Source: Rhizobacter sp.
GTDB lineage: Bacteria; Pseudomonadota; Gammaproteobacteria; Burkholderiales; Burkholderiaceae_C
Reading direction: 5' to 3'
Assembly (NCBI GenBank): GCA_021153565.1
Contig: JAJKJU010000176.1
Location: 1,128 to 65,127, forward strand
Length of the DNA: 64,000 bases
Shown: piece after piece, positions 23,401-58,536 of the stretch
Layout: each line of letters begins with the position of its first letter
How positions within the stretch are numbered: the first letter of the stretch is position 1
Notes under the pieces: model-generated
Seen by the model: the letters and a program-made list of their open reading frames with translations, nothing else
What the model was told of the DNA's origin: nothing
Database searches by the model: none
Program-made: the position numbers and the translations under genes

Positions 23401-26400
23401 CTGCTGCTGCAGAACGCGTGGAAGGCCGTGGAAGACGCGGGCTACCTGGCCGAGGACATCGCCGACGCGGCGGTGTACCTGTCGGCGTCCAACTCGCACT
23501 ACCTCGCGCCGCTGGTCCACGACCTGCAGCACAAGGATTCCGAGACGCTGGTGCGCTTCATGCTGTCGCAGCCGGGCACCTTTGCGGCCATGGTCTCGCA
23601 CCATTTGCGCCTCAAGGGCCCGAGCCTCTTCGTGCACAGCAACTGCTCGTCCTCGCTGGCCGCGCTGGCGCTGGGCTGCCAGGCCATCGCGTCGGGCCAG
23701 GTGCGGCATGCGCTGGTCGGCGGGGCCAGCATCTACGCCCACGACAGCATCGGCTACCTGCACGAGGAGGGCATGAACCTTTCGGCCGACGGCCACTGCC
23801 GTGCATTCGACGCGCAGGCCAGCGGCATGGTGGGGGGCGAGGGCGTGGCCGTCGTGCTGCTGAAGGACGCCGCCGCGGCGCTGGCCGACGGCGACGCCAT
23901 CTACGCCATCGTCCGCGGCGCCGCGATCAACAACGATGGCGGTGACAAGGCAGGGTTCTATGCCCCCAGCGTGGCCGGCCAGACGGCGGTGATCCGCTCG
24001 GCGCTGGCCCGCGCCGGCGTGGACGCGTCCACCGTGCAGTATGTCGAGGCCCATGGCACCGGCACGCGGCTGGGCGACCCCATCGAGGTCAGTGCGCTGG
24101 CCGAGGCCTATCGCGATGCGCGGGCCGTGGGGCTGGGTTCGGTCAAGAGCAACCTCGGCCACCTGGACGCGGCGGCCGGCCTGGCCGGCCTGGTCAAGTG
24201 CGCCTTGGCCTTGCGCGAAGGGCAGGTCCCGCCGTCGATCCATTTCCGCACGCCCAACCCGCAGGCGCGCTTCGAGGCCACGCCGTTCCAGGTGCTGGAC
24301 CGGGTGACGCCTCTGCGCAGCGATGGCGGCCCGGCGCGGGCCGCGGTGAGTTCCTTCGGCATCGGCGGCACCAACGTGCATGCCGTGCTGGAGGCTGCCC
24401 CCGCTGTGGGCGGCGGCGCGCAGGCTGGCGGTGCCCGGCTGGTGCCGCTGTCGGCCCGCAAGCCGGCCAACCTGCGGTGCATGGCCCGCGAGCTGGCCGA
24501 TGAGCTGCAGCGTGGCATGGACAGCGGCACGGCGCCTCGTTTGGCGGACGTGGCCTTCACCTTGCAGGTGGGCCGCCTCGCACAGCCGGTGCGTGCGGCC
24601 TTCGTGGTGCACGAGCTGCCCGAGCTGGTCGCGGCGCTGCGTGGACTGGCCGGCGGGCATGACGCCATGGCGCCGCCGCAGTCGCTGGCCGAGGCCGGCC
24701 TGCTCGACGACGAGGACCGGCAGCAACTGGTTCAGCGCTGGATATCCGCAGGCCGGCTCGACAAGCTGGCGCGCTTCTGGCAAGCCGGCGGCACCGTGCA
24801 CTGGGCCCGCCTCCATGGGCCGCATGATCGCCCGCGCCGTGTGAACCTGCCGGCCTACGCCTTCAGCGAGGACGCCCACTGGATCGCCCGCGAGGTGCAG
24901 CCTGTGTCGGCCGCCCAGGACACCATGGTGAAGCCCTCGGAGGCAACCCTGTTCGAGGAGCGCTGGGTGGAGGCACCCTTGCCCGAGGGCGTGCAGGTGG
25001 CCGCCGCACAGGGCCGCCGCGAGCGCATCGTCTGCCTGTTCGACGACGCGACCGGGCGGCAGCACCTGCGCCAGGCGTTGCAGGCCTTGAATCCGCAGGC
25101 CGAACTGCTCTTCCTCGCGCAGGATCCGTCAGCGGGCGCCGAGGCGGGATGCCTCGCCGTCGAAGGCGGCGAGCACGGGCTGGACACGGCGCTGCAGACC
25201 GTCGCCCGCGACGGTGCGCAGGTCGATGCCGTCTATTGGCTGGGTCCCGTCCAGGATGCCGGCTGCCTGCACGACCTGGCGTTCCCGGGCGTGCTGTTGC
25301 GCGCATTGCAGCGCGCCGGGCTCTCGGCCGGCCAGGTGCTGCTGGCCGGCAGCTTCACCGATGCGGTCGAGCAGGCGCTGCTGGATGCGCTGGTCGGCTA
25401 TGAGCGCTCCGTCGCCCGGGCGTGGCCCGGGAGTGTCGTGCGGGTGCTCATGCACGCCGGCACAGCCACGCCCGAGCAATGGGTTCATCTCCTGCACCGC
25501 GAGCTACACCATGGAGGGCACGCCAGCGTGATGGTGCGTGACGGGCGCCGCCTGGCCTGCCGGGTGAGGCCGATGGACGGCGCCGCGCCGGGCACCGGCT
25601 TCGCGTTCAAGCGGGGCGGCACCTACGTGGTCACCGGCGCCTTCCGCGGCCTCGGCCGCCGGGTGGCCGAGCACCTGGCGCGCCGCTACCAGGCAAAGCT
25701 GGTTCTGCTGGGCCGGTCGGTGCCGGGCGAGAAAGAGCTCGCCTGGATCGCCGGGTTGGCCGACGCGGGCTGCGAGGTGCAGCACGCCTCGGTGGACGTG
25801 GCGGACCTGCAGGCCTTGCAGGCGGTGCATGCCGCGCTGCCGCCGGCCTGGCGACAGGTCGACGGAGTGCTCCACGTCGCCGGCGTGGACCAGCCGGCCT
25901 CACTGCTGGAGCAGGATGCCGCGGCGTTCGAGCGCGTGCTGCGCCCCAAGGTGCCGGGCACGCTGGCCCTCGAGCGCGTGTTCGGCGCGCAAGGGCAGGC
26001 CCTCATGTGCGCCTTCTCGTCGTCGGCTGCCGTGCAGGGCGACTTCGGCGGCTGCGACTACGCCGTCGCCAACCGCTTCCAGTGGGCCTATGCCAGGGCC
26101 CTGCGCGAATGGCAGGGAGAGGGCAGCCGCATGGTGGCCATCGGCTGGCCGCTGTGGGAGGAGGGCGGCATGGGCGCGGCCACGCGCCAGCGCCTGCAGC
26201 CACAGGCGCTGCAGGCCTACCTGGCCGCGAGCGGCCAGGCCCCCTTGCCGACCCGCACCGCGCTCGCGCTGCTGGAGCGCCTGCTGGGCGAGGGCCATGT
26301 GCAGCCGCTGGTGATCAACGCCGACCCGGTGCGTGCCGGCGCGCTGCTGAAATCCACTGGCGGGATGGCACCTGCCGTGGCCGGACCAGCCGTGGCGGCG

Positions 26401-29400
26401 CCCGTCGGCGATCCCCTGCAGCAAGCCCTCGCGGCCGAACTGCATTCGCTCGCGCAGCAGCTGCTGAAGCAGCCGGAACAGGCGCTGGACGAAGACCGTC
26501 CGTTCGTCGACCTGGGCTTCGATTCGATCCGCCTGATGCAGCTGGCCACCCGGATGTCCGAACGCCTGGGCGTGAAGCTGCTGCCGGCGCTGTTCTACGA
26601 CCACCCCACCATCGGCCAGATCGCTGGCCACGTGGCCGCGGTCCACGCCGAGGCGCTGGCCGCCCGGTGGCCGGCGGCGGCATTGCGCGCGCCGCAGGAG
26701 CCGGCTTCGGCGCCCGCCGGGGCGGGGCAGGACGGCACGGCGCCGCCCGCGCCGGCCTCATCGCCTTCCAAGGAGCACGCGACGGCCCTGCATGAGCCGA
26801 TCGCCATCATCGGCATGAGCGGCCTGTTCCCGCAGGCGGATTCGGTGCCGGCGTTCTGGCAGATGGTTGCCGGGCAGCAGCACGCGGTGGGGCCGGTGCC
26901 CGCGGCCCGCTGGGGCTGGCATGCGGCCGACAGCACGTCGGAGCTGCGGTGCCGGTGGATGGGCTGCCTCGATGCGGTCGACGCCTTCGACGCGCAGTTC
27001 TTCGAGATCGCGCCGAAGGAGGCCCGCGTCATGGACCCGCGCCAGCGCCTGCTGCTGCAGGAGGCCTGGAAGGCGCTGGACGATGCGGCCCTCGGGCCGC
27101 AGCTGCTCGGCGAGCGGCGCGTCGGCGTCTTCGTCGGCGTGGAGCAGGGCGACTACCAGTACCTGGTGCAGGACGGCGGCAACGTCACCTCCAACCATGA
27201 CGGGGTGCTGGCGGCCCGGCTGTCTTACTTCCTCGACTTCAAGGGGCCGGTGATGGCCCTCAACACCGCGTGCTCCTCGGGCCTGGTGGCCTTGCACCAG
27301 GCGTGCATGAGCCTGCGCCAGGGCGAGTGCGACATCGCCGTCGTCGCCGCAGCCAACCTGCTGTGCACGCCCGGCGCCTTCGTGGCCATGGATCGGGCCG
27401 GCATGCTGTCACCCAGCGGCCGCTGCCGCACCTTCGACCGCCACGCCGACGGCATGGTGCCCGGGGAGGCCGTGGTGGCGCTGGTGCTCGAGCCGCTGGC
27501 CCGGGCCCAGGCCGAAGGCGACCCGGTGCACAGCGTGGTCGTCGCCAGCGCCATCAACTGCGACGGCCGCACCAACGGCATCACCGCGCCCGCCGGCCCG
27601 GCGCAGCAAGCGCTGCTGGAGGACATCTACGTGCGGCAGGGCGTGGACCCTGCCGGTATCGGCCTCGTGGTGGCCCACGGCACCGGCACCCGGCTGGGCG
27701 ACCCGGTGGAGGTGCAGGCGCTGAACGCGGTGTTCGGTCCGCGCATGCCGCCCGGCGCCCGCTGCGCGCTGGCATCGACCAAGACGCACGTCGGCCACAC
27801 CTTCGCCGCCTCCGGGCTGGTGAGCCTGGCCGCGCTGTCGCAGGCGCTTGCGCACGGCGTGTTGCCCGCCAGCCTGCATTGCGAGGAGGAGAGCGACTAC
27901 ATCGAGTGGCGCGACAGTCCGTTCTACGTGAACAAGAAGGCCGGCCCCTGGCCGACGGCTGCGGGCCGGCGCCGCATGGGCGGTGTCAGCGCCTTCGGCA
28001 TGAGCGGCACCAACGCGCACGTGGTGCTGGCCGAAGCGCCGGCACCTGCGGCCCTGGCCGCTGCGGCAGCGTTGCCGGCGTACCTGCTGCCGGTGTCGGC
28101 CAAGACCGAGGCCGCCCTCGAACGCGCGCTGGCACGGCTGGCCGGCTGGCTGCAGGAGACGGCGCTGCGCGACGAGGACCTGGCGCGTTTGAGCCATACC
28201 TTGTGGCATGGGCGCCATCACTTCCGCCATCGCAGCGCGATCATCGCCTCCAGCGTGCCGCAAGCGCTGCAGCGCTGGTCGGACCTGCGCGCGGGCCAGG
28301 ACGATGCCGGGTGCTTCCGGGCCTCGGTGGACCGGTCCTTCAAGCCGAGCGCGGCGTCGCACGAAGCCGTCGATGCCCTGCTGGCGCAGGCCGGCGCCGG
28401 TTCCCTGCCGCGGCCCGCCCACGAGGCGGCCCTGGCGGAGCTGGCGCGCTGGTACGTGCAAGGCCATCCCATCGATGCGGCGCGGCTCCATCCTGGCCGT
28501 CCGCTGCGCTTGCGCCTGCCGGCGTATCCGTTCGCGGCGGACCGGCACTGGGTCGACGACCGCTTGCAGGCGACCCGGGACGCAGCAGCCCCGGCCACCG
28601 CTGCCGATGCGGCGCTCGGCCACAGCCAGCCCGCTGCCGTGCAGGCCGACAGCCGGGTCGCGTCGAAGCAGCCGTTGCAGCGGCGGCCCACGCCGCACGC
28701 AGATGAATCGGCGCCCATGCCGCAGGCCGGCAAGCCCGCGCGCCAGCCGTTGACCCTTGCCGACCCTGCGACCAGCGACTGGCCTGCGCCCTCGGGCGCG
28801 GCTGCGCCGGGGGCCAAGCCCACAGGCATCGGCCTTTCACCGCTGCCCGAGGCGCCAACCCTCACGGGCGGTGCGCTGCGCCCGCACGATGTGCTGGAGG
28901 ACCTGAAGTCGGCGGCCGACATCGGCTTCGGCGGCATGGTCGCCACGCTCAACCGCACCGGCGTGATGGTGGAGTGCCTCATCCCGTATTCGTCGGACTT
29001 CGCCGACTACGCCGGGCACGGCGACGCCGAGGTGCTGGACCTCGGATGCGCCTACGGCGTCGCGACCATCGCGGCGCTGGAGTGCGGCGCCCGGGTGATG
29101 GCGGTGGACATGGCGCAGGCCCACCTCGACATCCTGGCGCAGCGCGTCAGCGACGAGGCGCGGTGTCGCCTGTCGCTGATGCAGGGCGTGCTGCCCGACA
29201 TCGACTTCGAGCCGGGGCGCTTCGCGGCGATCCACGCCAGCCGCGTCCTGCACTTCCTGCGCCCGCAGGATGTGCAGCTGACGCTGCGCAAGATGTTCAG
29301 CTGGCTCAAGCCGGGCGGGCGCATCTTCCTCAGCTCGGACTCGCCGTACTTCGGCTACTGGGCGGCCAAGGCGACGGAGTACGAGCAGCGCAAGCGCCAG

Positions 29401-30459
29401 GGCGATCCCTGGCCCGGGTTCATCGACGACGTCCAGGCGCATTTCCCGCCCGCCGACGTGATGGGCGGGCCGAACCAGATCAACGCCCTCGACCCGGATG
29501 TCTTCACGCGCGAGTGCGAAGCGGCCGGCTTCGTCGTCGAGCGTGCCGACTTCTTCGGCGCGGTGGGCGTCGATCGCCAGGCCCACCTGGCGCCCGGGCC
29601 CGACATGGAGCATGCCGGCGTGATCGCCGTCAAGCCGGCGGGCCGCCGGGAGCCGCCTGCCGGCCCGCGGTTCGCCACGTCGCGCGACGGCAATGCGGTG
29701 CGCCTGGAGGTGCGCGGCAGCGGCGAGACCGCCCTGGTCTTCATCCACGGCCTCGGCTGCGACGGCAGCTACTGGGACGCGCAGGTGCAGCATTTCGCCA
29801 GCCGCCACACGGTGCTGTGCCTGGACCTCGCCGGCCACGGCGGCTCCGGCCGCGAGCGCGCGCGCTGGACGGTCCAGGCCTTCGCCGACGACGTCGCCGC
29901 GGCGATCGAGCACGCCGGATTGAAAGAGGTGATCGTCGTCGGCCATTCGCTGGGCGGCCCGGTGATGCTGGAGCTGCCGGCGCGGGTGGGCGCCCGGGTG
30001 CGTGGCCTGGTGGGCGTCGACACGCTGCACAACCTCGAGCCCCGGCCGATGGACCCGGCGCGGCTGGACGCCTGGCTCCAGGCCTACCTCGCGCATCCGC
30101 TCGACCTGCGCGAGATGTTTGCCGCGGGCGTCGACCCGGCCCTGGTCGAGCGGGTACGGCGCACGCGCGCCGCCACAGGCGCCGAGGTCATCCATTCGGC
30201 GATGCGCGAAATGATCCTCTACATGCAGGCGCTGCCGCCGCGGCTGCCGGGGTCGCTGACCTTGATCAACTCGTCCGGCTGGATGCCCACGAGTTTGGAC
30301 ACTGCCCGCCGGCGCGGCGTGACGGTGGAGCTGCTTGACGGCGTGGGCCATTTCCCGATGCTGGAGGCGCCGCAGGCGCTCAATGCCCTCATCGAGAAAG
30401 CCATCCGGCCGTTCCTGAAAGACGAATCAAAAAACGGGGAGATGCTATGTCCAGCCTGA
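8407..30459 (+). CDS. giant hybrid NRPS / trans-AT PKS (about 7350 aa): C-A(Gly)-PCP-KS-DH-KR-cMT-ACP-ACP-KS-ACP-C-A(Gly)-PCP-KS-KR-ACP-KS-MT-like-alpha/beta-hydrolase
   Basis: ATG 8407 lies 2 nt after the upstream stop and 8 nt after GGAGGA (8393-8398). The track start at 7684 is only an in-frame open extension overlapping the previous CDS. Motifs in order: HHLVFDGAS (His codons 8896-8901); YTSGSTGRPKG; PCP GGNS Ser 11464-11466; KS Cys 12163-12165; DH HVVLGRRLLP and DAAIH; KR GGAGGIG; ILEVGAGTG; ACP Ser 17155-17157 and 17458-17460; KS Cys 18163-18165; ACP GLSS 19636-19638; HHVVIDGAS; PCP GGSS 22843-22845; KS Cys 23644-23646; KR TGAFRGLG; ACP GFDS 26524-26526; KS Cys 27271-27273; VLDLGCAYG; GHSLG Ser 29947-29949. 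Confidence 0.9.
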   Translation: MKTTIQSLIAQYKAGHLSGEQVARALADLKAGQAGRPLSAGQQGLWILQKSYPGMTAYNIPVCVRVAQLDAQVLRDAMGWVVRRHPILSTRIRQQSDGRLLQWEEPEQPVPFHVHDLSRATEAEVIAALRAQARQVFAVEDAPLAAVHVFALAGGEAIVLLLVHHLVFDGASGPIVLDALFSACETLRDGGVPALPVAAAGFHDFVRDEQRRLAEGQAALAYWQARLAGPLPVLQLARQSAPVRDAFAGATHMQLLAQPAVDRIVAMAESQGSFLSSLLLAAYKVLLAARSGQRDLVVGMPVNERRSPALQHAVGFLVNMVPIRSVLNEELAFGHFLAQVQKDMIDAMAHSHPFGALVRALGSSPSAARSPVFQTAFMFQDVLQGIDDRPYELVGELHQEGEYELSLELIRRRQGLVLNWKYHPELYSAEDVAALAAAYERVLEAVAGDAGRPLRELFALTGERGAPQAPAHWVHEQVEAQAQSAPDRVAVSFGDQALSYRELSERSTRLASQLRAQGVKKNDLVAVLAERSLDMVVGLLAVLKAGAAYVPLDPAHPADRLAYVVQDSGARVVLAQAALHEQAQSLLVDAPGAASVMLIDGPVAAPQSPQSPQSPQEPVVLDGEDLAYVIYTSGSTGRPKGVMVPHRALANFLTSMMRRPGLGANDVLLAVTTISFDIAGLELWLPLVQGARCHVADAATVRDASQLMRCIQQVRPTVMQATPALWTMLFLAGWRNAEGVRALCGGEAMPASLKQRFVETNTQAWNMYGPTETTIWSTVAQVHADRPVCLGEPIGETVLHVLDDQLRPVAEGGEGELCIAGAGVARGYWNRPELTAQKFIEHPLVPGGRLYRTGDLVRLGPGGSLEYLGRMDFQVKIRGHRVELGEVEHPLLQRAEVQECVAVARGADGERQLVAYCVPRAGAVPAFQPAALRAWLRERLPHYMVPDLVVAIDRIPLTANGKVDRQALMQRPVALGAAPMATPPAGRQALEARLLELWCEVLHVDGVELDDPFFDAGGNSMNAVVLADRITAAFGVPFTAGELFKHPTVSALAAWLQQALPAYAGLLAAVCAAAPAAGPAHDEDSVAVIGISCQFPGAPDLRAFWRSLCEGRQATRFLDEAQLREAQVPERLIGRPGYVPMQLGLADKDCFDAEFFKLSPNHVEMMDPQFRQVLQQAWKAVEDAGLDHRDIPRTAVYVSVGNHGYRTEGDASPVIEDSQQYLAWVLNQSGSVAAMISYQLGLEGPSLSVHSNCSSSLSALDLAFKSVRSGATDFALVAAASARSAERFGYVHQPGLNFSSDGRVKTFDVAADGMVGGEGVAALLLCRTGEAMRRRSHVYGLLRGIASTSDGGQSPGFFSPSMQGQGRAIRQVLQETGIDPSTIGYVEAHGTGTKLGDPVEVGALTEAYREHTVAQQFCGIGSVKPNIGHLDTAAGLAGCIKVLLSLHHRQLPPSINFSQPNPRLALQESPFYVTTTLAPWTAGDTPRRAALNSIGIGGSNTHAIFEEFVASAAANPVPRRTHLVPLSARRRPNLLQYAGDLLERLAPADGAADAPRIEDIAFTLQRGRVAMPSRVAFVVDDVAQLALELAAFVDGRASEHRFEGEALSRAGSAGQEGDVPAAADLLQLAQGWVAGEPLSWPALHDTTARRVSLPTYPFSRTRHPWAGHPRPEATGAAAPVAGGHPLMQGTCVGDAPWRFHARLSGEEFVVRDHVVLGRRLLPAVGALEMAFEALRRSMPQPAGPGHRLVLKHLSWLRPVAFDGAEGLALELSVQWEAASGHAPASATFELRGQGAQPVVHMQGRAQLHPATSAPRVDLAALRSRMSPQAVDGQACYAHIRRVGIDYGTGFRVIDKLHRSGPSAPREVLAELRLPQALAATMDEYTLHPSLMDAAIHASVGLEDALLAAVAGDAVPVEPAGAAARTAVPFALDSFEYFAPFQPRMQAWVRSDAMHPDEQDARVLDIDLLDMQGRTCARLRGLAFRPLGAPADGVAPRASVFNALQPAWLPLPASPAGALAVDHDSATAWLDLPPAWAGELRAHPAASVALPANISEDEIRDHLARLPAIDHLVWFAPPAGLGVAGDLQAMRAAQAHGLRRLFRIVKAVLALGHGKRGLTWTVITFGTQAVNQRDAVDPTHAGVHGLMGSLAKEYGQWRIRLLDLPADASPSLALPALPDRQSPVASGETLALRDGRWHRQRLLPVQALPEAAALPQCGSVQVVVGGAGGIGEVWSRFMVERHQAGIVWIGRRAADEAIVAKLQSLAELARRHGAPEPMYVPADAADLASLREAHRTIRQRHARVDGVVHSAIVLADRSVAHMDEQRLQLALAPKVDASIHLAEVFAEEPLQQVLFFSSLEGFARSPGQANYAAGCTFKDAFAQALARVRGARAAAAGLPAPAVKTVHWGYWGTAGVVSDAAYRQRMASAGIDSLDPRQAMEQLERFVASGFGQLAFVQTFGHEPLQAWCGDEQVLVAPAAGPSVLQACRAATPPRHEAVAQLLPALPQPRMLDLSRRLLAATLRDIAGDGRSLRVQGGLLPKYQRWFDESRAELQRSGLMLGDGTGSPEAFALRTDDLWTQWHAARPQWVQQEFQRGQVDLLERCLAAMPEVLAGRRPATDVLFPGGSTSAVEAMYRHHPVVDHFNLQLGDLAAQAVAAWRQHDPARRVRILEVGAGTGASTRRVLQALRPLAGAIEEYCFTDVSKAFLFAAQERLAAEHPFLRTRLFDVSRPGQPQGVAPCSYDIVIATNVLHATPDVARTLRHVKATMRRQGLLLLNEMSSNALLSHLTFGLLDGWWACDDTALRLPGGPLLAPARWIDLLADAGLAPGWLPHPEAHALGQQVIVAESDGIVRLPHEGMPAAMAPAAMAPAAEAGTDDAALLRTRTQAHLGDIVARALKLEQVDPQRDLAEYGLDSILVANLNNALAQDFDDLPSTLFFEMKTIDALVDYFVVCKRPALMERFGLHERGEAAAGQVAGAPLQDALHARLRRVVCEVLKMSEAELAPERNLFDCGLDSILVTQLNNRLAGPFEGLGSTLFFDCPTIAAATEHLLQHRAAEVVAWVGATVPATAAASPATLQRAAAAAAGVCAAAQPARPAASVRSRDVAIVGLAGHFPGAQDVQQFWSQVRDGVDCVSAYPADRWWCPPRAGEQRWGGFLRDVACFDAAFFGIDDTLAALLDPQERLFIETTYHAIEDAGYTPATLADSRRVGVFVGVMNATYSQRVAYSSIANRTSYLFDFQGTSLAVDSACSSSLTAIHLALESLYSGDNDCAIAGGVNLILDLDHFDLLSEMKLLSAGRECRAFGERADGFVAAEGVGSVVLRPLDDALARGDQIHGVIKASAVNAGGRSNRYGVPNLHAQRALVERALDKAGIDPATIGYVEAHGTATLLGDSIEVSALGRAYDRAGRRPRGSCPIGSVKSNIGHCESASGMAGLIKVLMQMKHGQIAPSLHAEELNSGIVFGQTPFFVNRSLAPWPAQDAQGRAVPRRAAVSCFGAGGANAHLLVEQHVAPATGHAEDPADGAWHAVPLSARHPERLRELARRLLALLRQGGPVPALRDVAYTLQVGREALPVRAGWLVRSIDDLCVKLAAFIDGDASAPASDLRQLSRSSETERRWHAEQAACIERHDMPGLLALWLQGAEASWQAMVLGPRPRRVSLPGYPFEKTVHWHQPPQGGPARTGAGSRAAAEGRQPSRSSAPAAPLERVRAWLAGELGRGLGIEAGEIDAGRDFVQSGLSSQALVQLAREIRRKLEPDFDAATLFEHATLDRLASHLVNERGVDAASLDVDDTSPEAGVAPEVAGRHPLSQGQQGLWMLQKTHPATTAYHVPLCLRARDLDTGLFAEAFAFALRQHPALDVVVAIAEGRLVQQACGQAAGVPEHDARALDEPQVLERIRRDVLRPFDLERGPLCRAAVYRLGDGSALVLIEAHHVVIDGASLAVLVGTLEQAYDALAARRQPQARPEAASHADFVAEEARLLASGEGQRRLAHWRRRLEGAMPLALHTDHPRRAAHAVHGRSRATALPVALGEALRRFCEAQALYPSTVFLALFQVLLRHYTQQEDVVVGMPASGRPGPRFERTVGYFVNMVPVRSQVAAELGVQDFCRALQRQLAQDLACAYPLPALVRELGLAQADGSAPLFNVAFMVQDWHEDRSSAAARFEHLPGVQQQGEYDLVLEVVLPAQASQPIVLNWKYDPGLFEDETLARLHRHFAVLLEMVMQRPDTPVAACELVCAEERLGLVRDRNRTEVAYPAHMTTASLFAAQAQRTPQAPAIVFGEQALRYGELHARVERLAAGLRRRGVGPGRLVAVCMERCTDLVAALLGVLQAGGAYIPLDPGYPRERLVDILGDARPQVVLTQQALQASVRGMCRDAMDGRDDVVVAMDGEWIEPASQAGTDARLAATPDDLAYVIYTSGSTGRPKGVMVSHRALTNFLCSMAREPGLAATDRLLAVTTHSFDIAALELFLPLVAGAVCHIADAATVKDAQRLKSLVEAVRPTVMQATPSAWSMLLHAGWRDGQGLRILCGGEAMSEPLKDRLLATGAEVWNMFGPTETTVWSLVERVQPGKPVSIGTPIANTRVYVVDPQGRLSPSGVPGELCIAGDGLARGYLNRPELSAEKFCADPFVPGASMYRTGDLVRWAPDGSLQYLGRMDSQVKVRGFRIELAEIETLLLAHPAVRDGAVVARAQGENKLLVAYYTPEGDGADGAQALQQHLAGRLPDYMVPAFFIQLEALPCTPNGKVDRKSLSERPLRLHGDADAPASTPAPMAPAAAVALDEVLGLWREVLMVEDIRASDGFFDAGGSSVLAAVLAERIAQRFGVVFTATDVFRHPTAAQVHARLNALRAVPAAACRTAPAARASVPFAQELQSTQGAPGMQDAQGARAPAHASGAAADASATGLQGAVAIVGLSCEVPGARNHRAFWRNLLAGHESVTLYTADELHERGVAPWLAAHPRFVPVQSTMAGKAFFDAEFFGISARDAELMDPQARLLLQNAWKAVEDAGYLAEDIADAAVYLSASNSHYLAPLVHDLQHKDSETLVRFMLSQPGTFAAMVSHHLRLKGPSLFVHSNCSSSLAALALGCQAIASGQVRHALVGGASIYAHDSIGYLHEEGMNLSADGHCRAFDAQASGMVGGEGVAVVLLKDAAAALADGDAIYAIVRGAAINNDGGDKAGFYAPSVAGQTAVIRSALARAGVDASTVQYVEAHGTGTRLGDPIEVSALAEAYRDARAVGLGSVKSNLGHLDAAAGLAGLVKCALALREGQVPPSIHFRTPNPQARFEATPFQVLDRVTPLRSDGGPARAAVSSFGIGGTNVHAVLEAAPAVGGGAQAGGARLVPLSARKPANLRCMARELADELQRGMDSGTAPRLADVAFTLQVGRLAQPVRAAFVVHELPELVAALRGLAGGHDAMAPPQSLAEAGLLDDEDRQQLVQRWISAGRLDKLARFWQAGGTVHWARLHGPHDRPRRVNLPAYAFSEDAHWIAREVQPVSAAQDTMVKPSEATLFEERWVEAPLPEGVQVAAAQGRRERIVCLFDDATGRQHLRQALQALNPQAELLFLAQDPSAGAEAGCLAVEGGEHGLDTALQTVARDGAQVDAVYWLGPVQDAGCLHDLAFPGVLLRALQRAGLSAGQVLLAGSFTDAVEQALLDALVGYERSVARAWPGSVVRVLMHAGTATPEQWVHLLHRELHHGGHASVMVRDGRRLACRVRPMDGAAPGTGFAFKRGGTYVVTGAFRGLGRRVAEHLARRYQAKLVLLGRSVPGEKELAWIAGLADAGCEVQHASVDVADLQALQAVHAALPPAWRQVDGVLHVAGVDQPASLLEQDAAAFERVLRPKVPGTLALERVFGAQGQALMCAFSSSAAVQGDFGGCDYAVANRFQWAYARALREWQGEGSRMVAIGWPLWEEGGMGAATRQRLQPQALQAYLAASGQAPLPTRTALALLERLLGEGHVQPLVINADPVRAGALLKSTGGMAPAVAGPAVAAPVGDPLQQALAAELHSLAQQLLKQPEQALDEDRPFVDLGFDSIRLMQLATRMSERLGVKLLPALFYDHPTIGQIAGHVAAVHAEALAARWPAAALRAPQEPASAPAGAGQDGTAPPAPASSPSKEHATALHEPIAIIGMSGLFPQADSVPAFWQMVAGQQHAVGPVPAARWGWHAADSTSELRCRWMGCLDAVDAFDAQFFEIAPKEARVMDPRQRLLLQEAWKALDDAALGPQLLGERRVGVFVGVEQGDYQYLVQDGGNVTSNHDGVLAARLSYFLDFKGPVMALNTACSSGLVALHQACMSLRQGECDIAVVAAANLLCTPGAFVAMDRAGMLSPSGRCRTFDRHADGMVPGEAVVALVLEPLARAQAEGDPVHSVVVASAINCDGRTNGITAPAGPAQQALLEDIYVRQGVDPAGIGLVVAHGTGTRLGDPVEVQALNAVFGPRMPPGARCALASTKTHVGHTFAASGLVSLAALSQALAHGVLPASLHCEEESDYIEWRDSPFYVNKKAGPWPTAAGRRRMGGVSAFGMSGTNAHVVLAEAPAPAALAAAAALPAYLLPVSAKTEAALERALARLAGWLQETALRDEDLARLSHTLWHGRHHFRHRSAIIASSVPQALQRWSDLRAGQDDAGCFRASVDRSFKPSAASHEAVDALLAQAGAGSLPRPAHEAALAELARWYVQGHPIDAARLHPGRPLRLRLPAYPFAADRHWVDDRLQATRDAAAPATAADAALGHSQPAAVQADSRVASKQPLQRRPTPHADESAPMPQAGKPARQPLTLADPATSDWPAPSGAAAPGAKPTGIGLSPLPEAPTLTGGALRPHDVLEDLKSAADIGFGGMVATLNRTGVMVECLIPYSSDFADYAGHGDAEVLDLGCAYGVATIAALECGARVMAVDMAQAHLDILAQRVSDEARCRLSLMQGVLPDIDFEPGRFAAIHASRVLHFLRPQDVQLTLRKMFSWLKPGGRIFLSSDSPYFGYWAAKATEYEQRKRQGDPWPGFIDDVQAHFPPADVMGGPNQINALDPDVFTRECEAAGFVVERADFFGAVGVDRQAHLAPGPDMEHAGVIAVKPAGRREPPAGPRFATSRDGNAVRLEVRGSGETALVFIHGLGCDGSYWDAQVQHFASRHTVLCLDLAGHGGSGRERARWTVQAFADDVAAAIEHAGLKEVIVVGHSLGGPVMLELPARVGARVRGLVGVDTLHNLEPRPMDPARLDAWLQAYLAHPLDLREMFAAGVDPALVERVRRTRAATGAEVIHSAMREMILYMQALPPRLPGSLTLINSSGWMPTSLDTARRRGVTVELLDGVGHFPMLEAPQALNALIEKAIRPFLKDESKNGEMLCPA
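9821..11310 (+). other. adenylation domain, hand-extracted code D-I-L-Q-L-G-M-I-W (Gly-type)
   Basis: Aligned by hand to GrsA positions 235-331 using SFDIAGLELW, TVMQATPALW, ALCGGEAM and NMYGPTETTIWS. Confidence 0.7.
10222..10254 (+). repeat. in-frame 9-bp microsatellite (CCGCAGTCC x3 plus CCGCAG) encoding PQSPQSPQSPQ
   Basis: Read directly. It lies in the first Gly adenylation domain, upstream of the YTSGSTG motif. Confidence 0.9.
16000..16960 (+). other. PKS C-methyltransferase domain (class I SAM fold)
   Basis: ILEVGAGTGASTRRVL (~16420-16465) and ATNVLHATPD. It lies between a KR and a tandem ACP pair. Confidence 0.75.
17040..17570 (+). other. tandem ACP doublet (no Trp flag)
   Basis: EYGLDSILVANLNN (Ser 17155-17157) and DCGLDSILVTQLNN (Ser 17458-17460). 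Confidence 0.8.
21190..22675 (+). other. adenylation domain, hand-extracted code D-I-L-Q-L-G-M-V-W (Gly-type)
   Basis: Read from SFDIAALELF, TVMQATPSAW, ILCGGEAM and NMFGPTETTVWS. Confidence 0.7.
28870..29640 (+). other. class I SAM-dependent methyltransferase-like domain at an unusual position (after the KS, before the beta-branching ACPs)
   Basis: AEVLDLGCAYGVATI (motif I variant), VMAVDMA (post-I acidic residue), AIHASRVLHFL and LKPGGRIFLSS. Confidence 0.7.
29650..30420 (+). other. alpha/beta-hydrolase fold domain (BioH / esterase-like) at the C-terminus of the megasynthase
   Basis: ALVFIHGLGCDGSYW (oxyanion-region HG), nucleophile elbow VVGHSLGGPV (Ser 29947-29949), and the C-terminal DGVGHFPMLEAP (His ~30348-30350). 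Confidence 0.75.
30436..30441 (+). promoter_or_regulatory. Shine-Dalgarno-like site for the 30447 CDS
   Basis: GGGGAG lies 5 nt upstream of the ATG, inside the upstream CDS. Confidence 0.6.
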
Positions 30460-31310
30460 TTGCCAACGACAACCAACCGATCCACAAGTACTTGCGCGAG
30501 ACCCTCGCACAGGTGCTCGACAGCGACCTCGCGCGCGCCGGAGATGACCTTCCGCTGGTGGAGTTGGGGCTCGATTCCGTGCCCTGCGCGGCCTGGGTCC
30601 GCCTGATCGCACAGCAGTACGGCGTGGCGCTCAGCGTGGCCGAGGTGTGCGAATGCGGCACCTTGCGCGCGGTGGGCCAGCGCGTCAACGCGGCGCTGGC
30701 CTCGCGAGCGACGGCGGGGGAAGGGCGTGCGGCCGACGAGGTGCTGGCCTGCGTGCGGCACAGCCTCGCCGTCGAACTCGACCGGCCGGAAGCCGACCTG
30801 GAAGACGACACGCCGTTCCTCGAACTGGGGCTGGATTCGATCACCGGCGTCACCTGGACGCGCAAGCTCAACACGCACTTCAAGCTCTCGCTGTCGGTGG
30901 CCAAGGTGTACAGCCACCCGACGCTGAGGGCGCTGGCTGCCCACATCGCGGTATCGACCGCGAAGCTCATCCCGGGGGTCGCCGGGCAGGAGCCGAATGG
31001 CAAGGCGCCGGTTCATGCGGGGAAGGCCGAGGCGGCGCCCGCACCTGCACCCGCGCAGCCCGGGGACGCCGTGCCGGGCGATGCGGTGGCACCGGTGGCT
31101 GCCGTGTTGCGCCGCCTGTTGGCGCAGGAGCTGGATGCCGACGAGCGCGGCATCGACGATGCCATGCCGTTCCTGGAGCTGGGTCTGGACTCGATCACTG
31201 GCGTCACCTGGATGCGCAAGATCAACACCCGCTTCGGCCTGGCGTTGTCGGTCGCCAAGGTCTACAGCCATTCGACCATCGCCGGGCTGGCGGCGTTCAT
31301 CGTGCAGCAG
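30447..31310 (+). other. triple ACP, each with Trp six residues after the Ser (beta-branching flag)
   Basis: LGLDSVPCAAW, LGLDSITGVTW and LGLDSITGVTW. The second and third copies are clearly paralogous (VAKVYSHPT / VAKVYSHST). Confidence 0.85.
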
Positions 31311-34300
31311 GGCGTGAGTGCCGGCCCGCCGGAGGCGACGCAGCGGCCTGCCGCCGCACCAGGCGCGCGGGCTGCACCCGCATCCCCGGCATCGCAAGCC
31401 GGGCCGCCTGCGCTGCAAGCGGCACCAGGGCCGGCCTTGTTCGCGCAGGCGCCGCCCGTGCCGGCCGGCATCGCGGTGATCGGCATGTCAGGCCAGTTCC
31501 CGATGGCCGACGACCTGGAAGCGTTCTGGCAGAACATCCTCCAGCGCAAGGACTGCGTCAGCGAGGTGCCGGCATCGCGCTGGCGCATCGACCGGCATTT
31601 CCAGTCCGGCGCGCCGCGGCCCGGCAAGTCGTACAGCAAGTGGATGGGCGTGCTCGATCGCGCGGCCGAGTTCGACCCGCTGTTCTTCAACATCTCGCCG
31701 GCCGAGGCGCAGTTCATGGACCCGCAGCAGCGCCTGGTGCTGCAGCAGAGTTGGCATTGCATCGAGGATGCCGGCGGCGACCCCGATCGCCTGGCCGGCA
31801 CCGCCTGCGGCGTCTTCCTCGGCTGCTCGTCCAACGGCTACGGTGAGCAGGTCGACGAGCGCGACTGGAACGCGCACCAGAACCTGGGCAGCAACAGTGC
31901 CATCCTGGCCAGCCGCATCGCCTACTTCCTGAACCTGCGCGGGCCCTGCCTGTCGATCGACACCTCGTGCTCGTCCTCGCTGGTGGCCATCGCCAGCGCC
32001 TGCGACAGCCTCTTGCTGGGCGAGAGCGAGGTCGCGCTGGCCGGCGGCGTGTGGGTGATCCCCGGACCGGGCGTGCACGTTGCGATGAGCCAGCTCAACG
32101 CACTGTCGCCCGATGGTCGCTGTCGCGCCTTCGACGACCGCGCCAACGGCTTCGTACCGGCCGAGGGTGTGGGCTTCCTGATGCTGAAGCGGCTGTCCGA
32201 TGCGCAACGCGACGGCGACCGCATCCATGCAGTCATCGCCGGCTGGGGCGTCAACCAGGACGGCAAGTCCAACGGCATTACCGCGCCGAACGGCGACGCC
32301 CAGGCGGCGCTGCAGGAGCGGGTGTACCGGCGTTTCGGCATCGACCTCGCGGACATCGACCTGGTGGAGGCGCACGGCACCGGCACCTCGCTGGGCGACC
32401 CGGTGGAGGTGGATGCACTCACCGCGAGCTTCCGGCGTTTCACGCCGCGGGTGGGCGACTGCGCGCTCGGCTCGGTCAAGAGCAACATCGGGCACACCGC
32501 CAGCGCCGCCGGCGTGGCCAGCGCGCTGAAGGTGATCCTCGCGCTGAAGCACCGGGTCCTGCCGCCCACCGCGCTGTTCGAGCGGATGAACCCGCACATC
32601 GACCTGTCTTCGACGCCGTTCCGGGTGCAGGCCGGGCCGGCGCCCTGGGCCGGCCGGGGCCGGCCCCGCATGGGGGTGGTCAACTCCTTCGGCTACAGCG
32701 GCACCAATGCGCACCTGGTGATCGCCGAGGCGCCGCTGCAGCCGCCGATGCAGGCCCCGCAGGGCGAGTGTCTGGTGGTGTTGTCGGCGCGCACTGCCGC
32801 GCAGTTGAAGGAGCAGGCGCAGCGCTTGTCGGCGCACCTCGAACGCCATGCGGACGTCGCCCTCGGCGACCTGGCCCACACCCTGTTGCACGGACGCAAG
32901 CACTGGCGCCATCGCCTGGCGGTCGTCGCGGGCGACCTGGCGCAGCTGCAGCGTTCGCTGCGCGCGTGGCTGGACCAGGGCAGCGACCCGGCCGTGTGCC
33001 AGGGCGAGGCCCAGCCGGGCCAAAGCGGCGCTGCCGTCGAGACGCCGGGGCTGTCCGAGGCCGCGCAGCAGTACGTGCGCGGCGCTTCCCTGCGTTGGGA
33101 GGCGCTGTTCCCCCACGGCCGGCAGCGGCTGCTGAGCCTGCCGGGCTATCCGTTCTCGCGCGAGCGGCATTGGCTGCCCTTGCATCCGCTGCTGCACCGC
33201 GACGAATCCACTGCGTCGCAGGCGCGGTTCAGCGCAACCTTCGATGGCACGGAAAGCTTCCTGGACCACCATCGCGTGCAGGGCGAGAAGGTGCTGCCCG
33301 GCGCCGCCTATCTCGAGATGGCGCGCGAGGCGGTGGCCCGTGTTCACGGTGAGGAAGCGGTGGCCCGCATGCAGCTGCAGGACCTGGTCTGGCTGCGGCC
33401 AGCCACCTGCCGTGCGGGCCTGGAGCTGGCGGCCACACTGACGCCCCAGGCCGAGGGGCTGCTGGGCTTCGAGGTCACGGCCCAGGGCGGGGAGGGGCAG
33501 CCCTTGCTGCTGTGCCAGGCCCGCGTCCGGCTCGACGCCGGGGTGATGCCCCGGCCGGTCGACCTGCAGGCATTGCGCGAGCGCTGCCGCGAGCCGCTGA
33601 TGCCAGCCGAGGATTTCTATGCGCTGTACGCCGCGGCCGGCATGGCGTACGGCCCGGCGCACCGCAGCGTCGTGCGCCTGCTCCAGGGCCGCGGGGCGCA
33701 GGGCCAGCCCGAGGTGCTGGCGGAGATTGCGCTGCCGGCGACTGTGCAGGGGCATCGCCACGGCCTTCATCCCAGCCTCGTCGACGGCGCACTGCAGGCC
33801 ACCGTGTGCCTGGGATGGACCGCGCAGTCGCCGGCGGCATCGCAGCCGGCGCTGCCCTTCGCCCTCGGCGGGCTGCAAGTGCTCGGTGCGACGCCGTCAC
33901 GCGTGTACGCCTGGATCCGGCCTTCGACGGCCGGTCGTGTCTCCGGGGCGGTGCACAAGCTCGACATCAGCCTGTGCGATGAGCAGGGCCGGCTGTGCGC
34001 CGAACTGAGCGGCCTCAGCGTGCGCGCCCTCGCGCGTGGCGAGCAGCCTGCGACCGGGCCCACGCCGGTGTCGCGGGCCGCCGTGCCTGTGGCCGCTGCG
34101 CCGCAAGTGGCCACGGCTTCGGGGGCACCGCGCCCGGCGCAAGTCGGCGACCGCGCCTTGCACTACTTCCGGCAGCAATTGGCGGTGGCGCTGAAGCTGT
34201 CGGTCGGCGAACTCGACGTCGATGCGCCGATGGAGCGCTACGGCATGGATTCCATCATGGCGATGGAACTCACCCGGCACCTGGAGGAGAGCTTCGGCCC

Positions 34301-37300
34301 GCTGCCCAAGACCCTGTTCTTCGAGGTGCAGACCCCGCGTGCCCTGGCCGAGTATTTCGTCGCCGAGCATCCGCAAGTCCTGCAGCAACTGCTCGGCGAG
34401 GGCGTGCCGGTGGAGCCGCCGGCGCTGCCCGCTGGGCCTGTGGAATGGCCCGACACCTCGGTGCCGGCGCCGCAGGCCGCATGGACGAGTCCGGCGCCTG
34501 CTGGCCATGCCGACATTGCCGTGGTCGGCATCGGCGGGCGCTATCCGCAGGCGCCCACGCTGCAGCAGTTCTGGGAGAACCTGCGCTCGGGACGCGATTG
34601 CATCACCGAGGTGCCGGCCGAGCGCTGGGACCACGGCCTGTACTTCGACCCCGACAAGGGCGCTGCCGGCAAGAGCTATTGCAAGTGGGGCGGCTTCATC
34701 GAGGGCGTGGACGAGTTCGATCCCTTGTTCTTCAACATCTCCCCGCGCGAGGCCGAGTATCTCGACCCGCAGGAGCGCCTGTTCCTGCAATGCGTGCACG
34801 AGACGCTGGAGGACGCGGGCTACACCGGCGAGTCGCTCGGACGCCAGAGCCGGCAGGCCGGCGCGTCGCAGCTGCACCGGGTGGGCGTGTTCGTCGGCGT
34901 GATGTACGAGGAGTACCAGCTCTACGGCGCACAGGCCCAGGCGCGCGGCCAGGCGGTGGCGCTGGCCGGCAGCCCCTCGTCGATCGCGAATCGCATCTCC
35001 TACTTCTTCAACTTCCACGGCCCTTCGATGGCGGTGGACACGATGTGCTCGTCGTCGCTCACGTCCATCCACCTGGCCTGCATGGCGATCCGCAGCGGCC
35101 AGTGCGACGCGGCGATCGCCGGCGGCGTGAACGTCACCGTGCATCCCAACAAGTACCTGATGCTGAGCCAGGGGCGCTTCGCCTCCAGCCTCGGGCGCTG
35201 CGGCAGCTTCGGCGCCGGCGGCAACGGATACGTGCCCGGCGAGGGCGTGGGCGCGCTGCTGCTCAAGCCCCGGGAGCGTGCACTGGCCGACGGCGACCAC
35301 ATCCTTGGCGTGATCCGCGGCAGCGCGCTCAACCATGGCGGCAAGACCAACGGCGTGTCCGTGCCCAGCCTCGTGGCACAGGGCCAGGTGATCGCGGCCG
35401 CGCTGCGCGAGGCGGGCGTGTCGCCTGCGGAACTGAGCTACATCGAAGCGCACGGCACCGGCACCTCGCTGGGCGATCCGATCGAGATCGCCGGCCTGAT
35501 GAAGGTTTTCCAGCCCGCGGGCGCCGGCCAGCCGGCGCAACGCTGCGCCATCGGCTCGGTGAAGTCCAGCATCGGCCACTGCGAAAGCGCCGCCGGCGTC
35601 GCGGGGGTGACGAAGGTGCTGCTGCAAATGCAGCACCGCCAGCTCGTGCCCAGCCTGCATTCGCAGACCCTGAACCCCCACATCGACTTCGACCGCACGC
35701 CGTTCGCCGTGCAGCAGCAGTTGCAGCCCTGGGAGCCGCCGGTGCGCATCGGTGAGGACGGCCAGCCCGTGGCGTGCCGCCGCATCGCCGGCGTGTCCAG
35801 CTTCGGAGCGGGCGGCTCGAACGCCCACGTCATCATCGAAGAGCATGTGGAGGATCCGTCGGAGGCCTGGCGCCGTGCGCGCTGGCAGGGCCGGCCGGCG
35901 GCCATCGTGCTGTCGGCACAGGACGCGCGGGCCCTGGTCGAGCGTGCCCGGCGCCTGCTGGCGCGGCTTCCGGATCTGCCCGGGGACGCGCTGCACGACC
36001 TGGCCTTCACCTTGCAGGTGGGCCGCGACGCGATGAAGGAACGGCTCGCGTTCGTGGTCGGATCGCTGCAGGAACTCGCCGCCCGCCTGCAGGCCTTCGT
36101 CGACGAGCCCCAGCGGATCCAGGGCATCGCCGCCGCCTGGCGCGGCACGGCCGAGGCCGGCCACGAGGCGTGGTCGGCCTTTGCCGGCGACGAGGAACTG
36201 CAGGAAGCGGTGCACAAGTGGCTGCAGCGCGGCAAGTACGAGAAGCTGCTGAACCTGTGGGTGCAGGGCCTGCGCGTCGACTGGCTGCAGCTCTACGGCC
36301 CGGACGCGGGCATGCGGCGGCTGAGCCTGCCCGGCTATCCGTTCGCGAAGGAGCGTTGCTGGTTCGAGGCCGCAACGGCCGGCGCTCCGTCGACGGCCGC
36401 CGCGGCCGTGCTGCACCCGCTGCTGCATCGCAACGACTCCACCGCCTTCGAGTTGCGGTTCAGCAGCACCTTCGATGGCTCGGAGCCGTTCCTGCGCGAT
36501 CACGTGGTCAACGGGCAGCGCGTGCTGCCCGGCGTCGCGCACCTCGAGATGGGGCGCGAGGCGATGGCGCGCTGCCTGGATGCCGGCGAGCGGTCGCGCG
36601 TGACGCTGTCCGGCGTGACCTGGCTGCGGCCTGCGATCGTCACGCAAGGTGCGCTGGCGCTGCGCGTGAAGGTACAGGCGCAGAGCGCCTCGCAGGCGAG
36701 CTACCAGGTGCTGGCGATCGGCGCCGATGGCGTGGAGACCCTGTGCAGCCAGGGCCAAGGCGTGCTGGCGTCTGCCGACGAGCCGGCGCCGGGGGTGGAC
36801 CTGGTCGCAGTGCGAGCGGAGTGTGCCGATGCGGTGCATCCGGCGGACGCGGTGTACGCGCTCTATGCCGGCCTGGGCCTGGCCTACGGGCCGGCGCAGC
36901 GTGCTATCCGGCAACTGGCAGTCGGCAAGGACGGCCGCGGCCGTCCGCAGGCCCTGGCAGTGCTGGCATTGCCGAGCACCTGGAAGTCGGACGACGGCTT
37001 CGGCCTGCACCCCAGCCTGCTGGACGGCGCCTTGCAAGCCACGATCGGGTTGGTGCTCGGCGAGGCGACCGGAAAACCGGCAGCCTTGCCGTTCGCGATC
37101 GACCACCTGGCGATCCATGCGCCGCTGCCCCACAGCTGCCTGGCCTGGGTGCGCCTTGATGCCGATGCGGTCGTGGAGGGGACCGGCGGCAAGGTCGACA
37201 TCACGCTGTGTGATGAGGCCGGCCGCGCCTGCCTCGACGTGAAGGGCTTGGTGTCGCGCCCGGTGCGCGAGTCGGCCGCGGCCGGCCGGCCCGGCGACGA

Positions 37301-58290: not shown

Positions 58291-58536
58291 ATGCAACAGG
58301 AAGACATCACGAAACTGCTGGCCGCCGCCATCCTGGAGCTGCGGCCCTCGCTGGAGGGACGGCCCCTTGGCCCCAGCGATTCGCTGGAGGCGCTCGGCCT
58401 GGACTAGATGGAGCGCGCCGACATCGTCATGCTCGTGCTCGAGCACATGAACCTTCGGATCCCGCTGGTCCAGACCTTCGGCCCCCGCAACATCGGCGAA
58501 CTCGCGAGGCTGCTGAGTGAGAAATCCGCCGCCTGA
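58291..58536 (+). pseudogene. free-standing donor acyl carrier protein of the beta-branching cassette (AcpK / CurB / mupirocin donor-ACP type), interrupted by an in-frame TAG at the Ser attachment codon
   Basis: ATG 58291 ...SDSLEALGLD, then TAG (58405-58407), then MERADIVMLVLEHMNLRIPLVQTFGPRNIGELARLLSEKSAA, then TGA (58534-58536). Everything is in one frame and totals 81 codons plus the stop. The stop falls where the G(L/A)DS Ser belongs. The layout resembles Bacillus AcpK as I recall it (...LGADSVDRAEIITMVLEDLSLKIP...NIGELAEVL). Confidence 0.8.

Follow-up and report, generated by a model that had tools for sequence, protein, structure and literature searches.

A fused methyltransferase–hydrolase unit in a hangtaimycin-type beta-branching module and its possible role in building an embedded delta-lactone

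Carboxymethyl branches placed on polyketide chains by HMGS (HMG-acyl carrier protein synthase) cassettes can be decarboxylated or can persist as methyl esters. Decarboxylation is exemplified by modules with an in-line ECH2, such as kalimantacin module 11, where a crotonase-fold decarboxylase is inserted as a tailoring domain, the acyl carrier proteins (ACPs) are Trp-flagged, the HMGS cassette acts in trans, and the carboxyl is removed. The lasting ester is exemplified by bryostatin, whose pendant methyl esters arise from HMGS branching (PMC7230173), and pathways without ECH2, bryostatin included, keep the carboxylated branch (PMC12560621). Here we examine a 64,000-nucleotide stretch from Rhizobacter sp. 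(contig JAJKJU010000176.1; hereafter the window), part of a Burkholderiales metagenome-assembled genome (MAG). It has a comparable insertion slot, Trp-flagged ACPs and trans-acting cassette; in contrast to kalimantacin, the slot holds a class I methyltransferase (MT) domain, here called MT*, followed by an alpha/beta-hydrolase domain, ABH, and the carboxyl would be kept.

The nearest characterized parallel to MT* is found in BryA/BryB, where an MT likewise follows a ketosynthase (KS) and precedes a Trp-flagged ACP, and where the pathway also lacks ECH2. The C-terminal module of BryA presumably builds the C21 methoxycarbonyl-methylidene branch of bryostatin, and its MT is said to have been assigned as an O-methyltransferase, in work by Sudek in 2007 and by Slocum in 2018. 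BryA has no hydrolase after the MT, and bryostatin keeps its methyl ester, whereas hangtaimycin, the product of the htm cluster of Streptomyces spectabilis, has a lactone instead. That cluster is a trans-acyltransferase (trans-AT) polyketide synthase (PKS)/nonribosomal peptide synthetase (NRPS) system of published domain order (Luo et al. 2021; PMC8456789, SI Table S4), in which the end of HtmA2 is labelled "unknown domain" and three ACPs, A1 to A3, open HtmA3.

As argued below, the window belongs to the same family as the htm cluster. We put forward, tentatively and at a little under an even chance, that MT*-ABH is an in-line PKS unit that would spend one S-adenosylmethionine (SAM) to turn an HMGS-branch carboxylate into an embedded alpha,beta-unsaturated delta-lactone by way of a cryptic methyl ester. 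ABH would then be a lactone synthase rather than an esterase, and the methyl ester of bryostatin and the lactone of hangtaimycin would correspond to MT alone and MT plus ABH within one toolkit.

The split branching module and its hangtaimycin relatives

The layout of the window was obtained from domain scans of all large open reading frames (ORFs), and all features discussed lie on the forward (+) strand. The elongating KS of the branching module (26821–28110) carries TACSS, AHGTGT and THVGH motifs; its TACSSGL motif begins at nucleotide 27265, which places the Cys codon at 27271, and the domain looks active. It is 57–66% identical to the KS ahead of MT*-ABH in three other loci (L003, L004, L015). 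A KS-flanking subdomain of the AT-docking type (28111–28545), which ends in AYPFAADRHW and was assigned from RhiE-like_linker/CurL-like matches in equivalent regions and from a self-map, leads into an Ala/Pro-rich spacer of ~110 residues (28546–28875) that, judging from its translation, is probably disordered. The domain scan finds no ketoreductase (KR), dehydratase (DH) or ACP after this last KS within the same protein; MT* (28876–29670) and ABH (29671–30459, including the stop codon) follow instead, and the protein (8407–30459) ends with TGA at 30457–30459. The next ORF begins with ATG at 30447, a 13-nt overlap, preceded 8 nt upstream by a GGGGAG ribosome-binding site.

This second protein opens with three tandem acceptor ACPs (30447–31346), seen as three PP-binding stretches with Ser codons at 30576, 30837 and 31191. 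All three have Trp at +6 from the Ser (codons 30594, 30855 and 31209), within the motif GLDSVPCAAW once and GLDSITGVTW twice, a residue that is absent at this position from the window's other ACPs with a legible Ser motif. Thus the KS, MT, hydrolase, gene overlap and three Trp-bearing ACPs listed in an earlier sequence-only reading of this DNA are all where that reading placed them. A downstream KS (31491–32735; TSCSS, AHGTGT and NIGHT motifs) would have to accept the branched (lactone) intermediate.

Ahead of the branching module stands a KS-KR-ACP module, the equivalent of htm "module 9", with its KR at 25597–26181 (Pfam KR, 1.6e-38) and an ACP at 26419–26634 whose Ser motif, GFDSIRLMQL, lacks the Trp flag. 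Neither the Pfam scan nor the domain map shows a DH in this module.

The trans-acting partners expected of a beta-branching module are encoded beyond the NRPS genes. They comprise a donor ACP gene, a PksF-type decarboxylating KS (58517–59731; NCBIfam NF005490, 549 bits against a cut-off of 445), an HMGS (59752–61014, from a chosen start codon; Pfam HMG_CoA_synt_N/C, and TIGR01835 at 1.9e-67, below its curated cut-off) and a PksH-type dehydratase, ECH1 (61002–61784; NF005498, 309 bits against 250; PDB 3HP0, PksH, at 3.6e-66), whose homologues are named PksH or 3-carboxymethyl-3-hydroxy-acyl-[acp] dehydratase. The decarboxylating KS, HMGS and ECH1 are all present, and the donor ACP gene is present with a TAG at its Ser codon. 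Together with the Trp-flagged ACPs, this cassette bears out the assignment of a split beta-branching module. No ECH2 was found within the window: no PKS protein carries an ECH Pfam or crotonase domain, and the single free-standing ECH is of the ECH1 type. The same holds for a homologous cluster of Brevibacillus laterosporus B9, which is visible end to end and has exactly one ECH, 44% identical to ECH1 of the window.

The wider architecture places the module in a known family. By domain scan, protein 1 reads ...KS-KR-ACP-KS-DH-ACP-KS-ACP; protein 2 reads C-A-PCP / KS-DH-KR-cMT-ACP / KS / C-A-PCP / KS-KR-ACP / KS-MT*-ABH (C, A and PCP being condensation, adenylation and peptidyl carrier protein domains, and cMT a C-methyltransferase); and protein 3 reads ACPx3-KS-DH-ACP-KS-DH-KR-ACP-KS-ACP. 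Two NRPS proteins follow, in which one A domain is split by an FkbM-type MT and another by an N-MT, and a C domain comes last; after them come the donor ACP, the PksF-type KS, HMGS, the single ECH and a tandem AT. This order is colinear with HtmA1–A3, B1, B2 and the HMGS/ECH/AT genes of htm, except that one PKS module is missing downstream of the branching module. HtmA2 module 10 and the N-terminus of HtmA3 have the same KS-[MT*-ABH] arrangement followed by three ACPs, within the same surrounding NRPS/PKS order and with the same three other MT domains. Two Streptomyces htm-type loci (L004 and L005) show the same local map, with 74–76% identity in MT* and 55–56% in ABH. Because the architecture matches the published htm cluster and these loci share the local map, the window is, on sequence grounds, a divergent member of the hangtaimycin-type cluster family.

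It differs in host, coming from a Burkholderiales MAG of 71% GC rather than from S. spectabilis, and in length: the protein after the branching module has 3671 residues, against 4748 for HtmA3, and lacks one KS-KR-ACP-ACP module. In the Streptomyces htm homologue that extra module sits directly after the three ACPs (window 30447–41462 compared with L004 11638–21108). Since one module is missing relative to HtmA3, the predicted product of the window is probably a hangtaimycin congener shorter by two carbons.

Conservation of the methyltransferase and hydrolase domains

MT* is a class I SAM-dependent MT by its Pfam matches (Methyltransf_25 at 5.8e-16, Methyltransf_12 at 1.3e-12, Methyltransf_11 at 5e-12 and Methyltransf_23 at 1.5e-10), with VLDLGCAYG at 29032 and LKPGGRIFLS at 29305. 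The sequence-only reading had likened it to the bryostatin MT, and the likeness is close: residues 4477–4729 of BryA (Candidatus Endobugula sertula) are 55% identical to MT* (E 8.8e-81) and occupy the same KS-MT-ACP(Trp) slot. The SAM-binding core is intact, with LDLGCAYG (motif I) and AVDM (the acidic residue after beta2) conserved; across 63 relatives the motif I consensus LDxGCAYG and further core positions hardly vary, and G57, G61 and others do not vary at all. An AlphaFold (AF2) model of the didomain has a pLDDT of 92 and a pTM of 0.70, with a pLDDT of 87 for MT*, whose first ~20 residues are modelled at low confidence. CysG of cystargolide biosynthesis is among the fold neighbours of MT*.

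The same earlier reading compared the pair with BioC, a malonyl-ACP O-methyltransferase, and BioH, a pimeloyl-ACP methyl ester esterase. As family membership this does not hold: MT* scores 27.1 bits against the 184.95-bit cut-off of TIGR02072 (BioC) and reaches no NCBIfam cut-off, and ABH scores 50.3 bits against 206.95 for TIGR01738 and 31.1 against 449 for NF007674 (BioH), so that the likeness is functional at most. Free-standing MTs of ~245 residues that are 45–53% identical to MT* form a large family, found mostly in gammaproteobacterial MAGs (P0122–P0213; L006 9962–10690); they come without a name, a conserved neighbourhood or a solved structure. Their gene context gives no clue to substrate, as the neighbours differ among the five loci compared (L006 and L010–L013) and include thiolase-SDR, DUF1015/glyoxalase and metK-ahcY pairs.

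ABH (coding part 29671–30456) matches Abhydrolase_6 at 2.1e-23 and Abhydrolase_1 at 4.3e-23, and has HGLGCDG at 29746, GHSLGG at 29941 with the Ser codon at 29947, and DGVGHFP at 30337. Its conserved motifs are GHSLGG, which forms the G-x-S-x-G nucleophile elbow, GVGHF and GVDT. Of 14 PKS-embedded ABH domains, 13–14 retain the Ser, the His and an Asp/Glu that follows strand beta6, and so do ~97% of 215 free-standing relatives. Foldseek places ABH nearest to carboxylesterases (TM ~0.75, normalised to the target); the best fold matches are the esterases 4UHC and 8PI1 and the acyl-homoserine-lactone-degrading esterase 5EGN, and the carboxylesterase neighbours include a Thermogutta esterase, a Pseudomonas aryl esterase and the acyl-homoserine-lactone-degrading Est816. 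In sequence and fold searches of the PDB, esterases, lactonases and dehalogenases match about equally, which does not fix the substrate. ABH is of esterase type. As the sequence-only reading had supposed, it is no chain-releasing thioesterase: it has no PF00975 match at E<=0.01, and it lies mid-pathway, with three further PKS modules and four NRPS modules downstream. Free-standing hydrolases 35–42% identical to ABH offer no functional lead, since they bear generic names only, among them the IMG label "pimeloyl-ACP methyl ester carboxylesterase", itself a generic name; several of those aligned have a hydrophobic N-terminus with a Cys that resembles a lipoprotein signal.

A didomain search of 1.84 billion representative proteins found MT* and ABH together in only ~10 clusters. 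The hosts belong to several phyla and include Streptomyces, Brevibacillus laterosporus, Rathayibacter tritici and a Kofleriaceae MAG, besides several metagenomic contigs; the loci span 39–76% GC. The domain matches lie far beyond chance, and homologues of the whole didomain score E = 1e-216 to 1e-141. In nearly every locus that shows the relevant parts, the didomain is followed by Trp-flagged ACPs and preceded by a KS-KR-ACP module or a KR: the full upstream module is seen in the window, P0225, P0226, P0228, P0230 and L003–L005, and the partial loci L014 and L015 show the KR. Where the downstream part and a legible Ser motif are available, the context of this PKS-embedded clade of MT domains is mostly KS-MT*-ACP(Trp) or KS-MT*-ABH-ACP(Trp). 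MT* alone, at 45–60% identity, lies within another dozen PKS proteins, BryA among them, and in six of these (BryA and five others) the order KS-MT*-ACP(Trp) without ABH was read directly.

Given this homology and context, MT* quite probably methylates the branch carboxyl. No grouping of the MT with enzymes acting at another position, no grouping of the hydrolase with thioesterases and no ECH2 came to light, and these three outcomes favour a role on the branch carboxyl.

A proposed path from branch carboxylate to lactone

By nuclear magnetic resonance (NMR), hangtaimycin contains a 4-substituted 5,6-dihydro-2H-pyran-2-one, an alpha,beta-unsaturated delta-lactone embedded in the chain. The shifts are 163.7 for C36 (quaternary sp2), 114.5 for C41 (=CH, 5.72 s), 161.6 for C40 (C=O), 77.2 for C38 (O-CH), 28.6 for C37 and 35.4 for C35; C42, the alpha-carbon of a glycine, is attached to C38, and the chain runs on from C36 via C35. 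Set against the module order by colinearity, N43/C42/C38 would come from glycine, C37/C36 and the C38 hydroxyl from the KS-KR module, and C35/C34 from the KS of the MT*-ABH module. C41–C40 would then be the HMGS acetate on the former 3-keto carbon C36, its retained carboxyl forming an ester with the C38 oxygen, and the KR of the preceding module would supply the hydroxyl that becomes the lactone oxygen. The expectation that methylation is followed by hydrolysis to the acid is at odds with this product, for the htm branch carboxyl ends as a lactone carbonyl.

The methyl groups of hangtaimycin carry a second constraint. There are seven; only three MT domains have been recognised in htm, and mutagenesis ties them to the methyls at C-45, O-21 and N-12 (PMC10624959). 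Judging from the structure, the other four would come from amino-acid and starter building blocks. As all seven are accounted for otherwise, a methyl added by MT* must be lost. One could take the same count to mean that the didomain has no part in the lactone step, since the htm papers account for every methyl without MT*. HMGS frees its product from a covalent thioester, so that intramolecular capture by the 5-hydroxyl of the acyl-enzyme is conceivable, and MT*-ABH might be vestigial, structural or active on another substrate. This we regard as very unlikely. Dead domains are not expected to keep their SAM-binding and catalytic-triad residues across such distant hosts, the closest characterized relative of MT* sits in the module that makes the bryostatin methyl-ester branch, and the didomain adjoins Trp-flagged ACPs in nearly every locus where they are visible.

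We favour a route in which the methyl is cryptic. The KS would extend the 3-hydroxyacyl chain from the KS-KR module to a 5-hydroxy-3-oxoacyl thioester on one of the Trp-flagged ACPs, and the free-standing decarboxylating KS, HMGS and ECH1 would put the acetate-derived carboxymethyl branch on the 3-keto carbon, where its carboxyl would stay for want of an ECH2 to remove it. MT* would methyl-esterify the branch carboxylate with SAM, both neutralising and activating it. The Ser of ABH would take up the ester and hand the acyl group to the nearby 5-hydroxyl, with loss of methanol; alternatively, ABH may simply catalyse direct attack by the 5-hydroxyl. The outcome would be an ACP-bound 4-substituted 5,6-dihydro-2H-pyran-2-one, extended downstream, whose double bond could arise through ring closure at the hydroxy stage followed by dehydration, or through double-bond migration. 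This full model, in which the methyl ester formed by MT* is cryptic and ABH uses it to close the lactone through transesterification, seems to us evenly poised between right and wrong. This model would explain together the position of the didomain, the Trp-flagged ACPs, the missing ECH2 and the missing methyl, as well as the upstream KS-KR-ACP module (or KR) in all but one locus that shows the upstream part, and it would give the downstream KS a neutral intermediate.

Several known systems bear on this chemistry. In capuramycin biosynthesis, CapS and CapW resemble the proposal in that SAM-dependent carboxyl methylation serves as activation and is followed by acyl transfer with loss of methanol; we take this pair to be the precedent to which the cystargolide work discussed below refers. 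They differ in being free-standing and in using a nucleoside acid as substrate and an amine as nucleophile to give an amide, and the comparison is one of description rather than of sequence. CapW is a beta-lactamase-like protein and not an Abhydrolase_6-type alpha/beta-hydrolase. BioC and BioH share with the proposal a class I MT, an alpha/beta-hydrolase and a methyl ester formed transiently on an ACP-bound dicarboxylate half-thioester; unlike the didomain, they are two proteins working at points several rounds of elongation apart, and their end product is a free acid. In the cystargolide/belactosin (CysG-CysF-CysE) and aurantinin (Art28/Art9) systems, too, a class I MT makes a cryptic methyl ester that a hydrolase removes. 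There, however, the ester is a protecting group, the hydrolase is a plain esterase, and discrete enzymes do the work, none of them on an HMGS branch; the lactonisation in the Cys system needs an ATP-dependent enzyme. Aurantinin shows such protection and deprotection on a trans-AT PKS product (PMC8302727), so that the use of a methyl ester for this purpose on a trans-AT line is already known.

By analogy, and as the sequence-only reading proposed, MT* might only mask the carboxylate, making the chain acceptable to downstream enzymes, and ABH later restore the acid, the lactone forming spontaneously or at work-up. The tested precedents of BioC/BioH, Art28/Art9 and CysG/CysE, the ordinary carboxylesterases among the fold neighbours of ABH and the absence of the methyl from hangtaimycin all fit this view, which we nevertheless consider unlikely. 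An esterase fused to the MT in one module would strip the mask while the chain was still in place, the isolated compound is a lactone and not an acid, no enzyme is evident that would activate the free carboxylate, the conserved upstream KR-only module would be needless, and both domains fall outside the BioC and BioH families. Because the branch carboxyl of hangtaimycin ends as the delta-lactone carbonyl, transesterification suits ABH better than deprotection.

The division of labour could also be otherwise: MT* might methylate as in bryostatin and the ester lactonise unaided, leaving ABH another task, such as proofreading, in which it would remove stalled or mis-methylated chains or hydrolyse uncyclised methyl esters. 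Given the right geometry, delta-hydroxy-alpha,beta-unsaturated esters readily form the ring, and BryA-type modules work without an ABH. A rough neighbour-joining tree, which carries no bootstrap support, does not unite the MT* domains that bear an ABH in one clade, a hint that ABH is easily gained and lost. On the other side, ABH lies strictly between MT* and the acceptor ACPs in ~10 representative clusters from several phyla, and such strict fusion together with the kept catalytic residues speaks for a function on the main route. Proofreading on trans-AT lines is, moreover, normally the work of AT-like acyl hydrolases and not of an in-line Abhydrolase_6 domain. On balance, unaided ring closure with ABH in a side role appears quite improbable.

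Several observations weigh against lactone formation by transesterification on MT*-ABH. In the cystargolide pathway the same proposal of lactonisation via a methyl ester, made for CysG/CysE, was disproved, the ester being protective and the hydrolase a plain esterase, although the same study cites SAM-driven carboxyl activation followed by acyl transfer as precedent (PMC11427300). Ring closure of a (Z)-5-hydroxy-2-enoate methyl ester may need no enzyme, in which case ABH would have no needed role. The double bond of the product points towards the branch, whereas ECH1 normally sets it towards the thioester, so that an extra isomerisation or another order of steps must be assumed. One locus, P0229, reads A-PCP-KS-DH-MT*-ABH without an upstream KR, the sole exception among those that show the upstream part. 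As for MT*, its Foldseek matches are generic class I MTs only (TM 0.5–0.7, no close solved relative), and its predicted carboxyl specificity is drawn from homology to BryA. The product of the window cluster is itself inferred through its htm homologue.

The cassette raises further points of the same kind. The donor ACP gene in the window (58291–58536) carries an in-frame TAG at 58405–58407, at the codon of the phosphopantetheinyl Ser (...LEALGLD*MERADIV...), one base away from TCG; either this is an error of the MAG assembly, or the gene is a pseudogene whose loss would cripple beta-branching unless another donor serves. A distal ECH2 gene in this organism is conceivable, because the cluster may run past the end of the window at 64000. 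The window ECH has 260 residues, while HtmH of S. spectabilis is listed as a 786-residue "enoyl-CoA hydratase"; the ~500 extra residues there may include a second ECH. The searchable literature, which leaves subscription papers outside, yielded no biochemical or genetic test of MT* or ABH, no role for the htm didomain and no description of an MT-hydrolase branching module. The sequence-only reading did not recall such a fused arrangement as described; the unit is in fact present in the published htm cluster, and it figures there only under the label "unknown domain". What appears to be new here is that a branching module houses an MT fused to a hydrolase, together with the link of this unit to the embedded lactone.

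Neighbouring features, related clusters and wider meaning

The first large ORF (98–8404) opens at nucleotide 98 with a KS and equals only modules 2–4 of HtmA1; a GNAT loading part and module 1 must be on a separate upstream protein or lie beyond the window. A trans-acting tandem acyltransferase resembling HtmA7 is encoded at 61975–63906 (Acyl_transf_1, 7.4e-73, in two stretches).

Related synthases are widely scattered. Megasynthases of the form C-A-PCP...KS-KR-ACP-KS-MT*-ABH occur in Brevibacillus laterosporus (22 near-identical members), Rathayibacter tritici and the Kofleriaceae MAG (P0226, P0228, P0227). The cluster of B. laterosporus B9 (L017–L019; NZ_CP011076.1, 591000–712000, an unannotated record) starts with a NusG-like gene, a phosphopantetheinyl transferase (PPTase) gene, an MBL-fold gene and an AT-AT-ER gene, and unrelated genes border it on the far side. 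A record labelled Bacillus velezensis (L003; CP059855.1, 417377–438642; 41% GC) has the same KS-KR-ACP-KS-MT*-ABH-ACP(W)x2 stretch with dozens of frameshifts, a sign that the assembly is of low accuracy and that the region may be mislabelled or foreign. BryA-type MT* domains without ABH are found in orphan PKSs (P0232–P0249), mostly as KS-MT*-ACP(Trp) where the downstream motif is legible, in Thioploca ingrica, Methylovulum, Spartinivicinus poritis, Agrobacterium vitis (on a plasmid) and Burkholderia alba; judging by their domain content, these PKSs may make methyl-ester branches. Outside PKS contexts, P0243, P0244 and P0260 represent tandem pairs that are MT*-like (990 residues) or ABH-like (536–568 residues).

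If the proposed role of MT*-ABH is correct, the "unknown domain" in the hangtaimycin synthase would gain a function, and the unusual embedded lactone of this family an origin. HMGS branches would have a third fate beside decarboxylation and the lasting methyl ester, and the didomain would be a rare case in which an assembly line uses SAM for activation. The signature of MT alone as opposed to MT plus ABH would predict methyl-ester as opposed to lactone branches in orphan clusters, for which Brevibacillus laterosporus, Rathayibacter tritici, the Kofleriaceae, Agrobacterium vitis and Thioploca are candidates. For polyketide specialists, the proposal would be directly testable in a genetically tractable producer, and the didomain would be a portable part with which to engineer neutral, cyclised polyketide branches.

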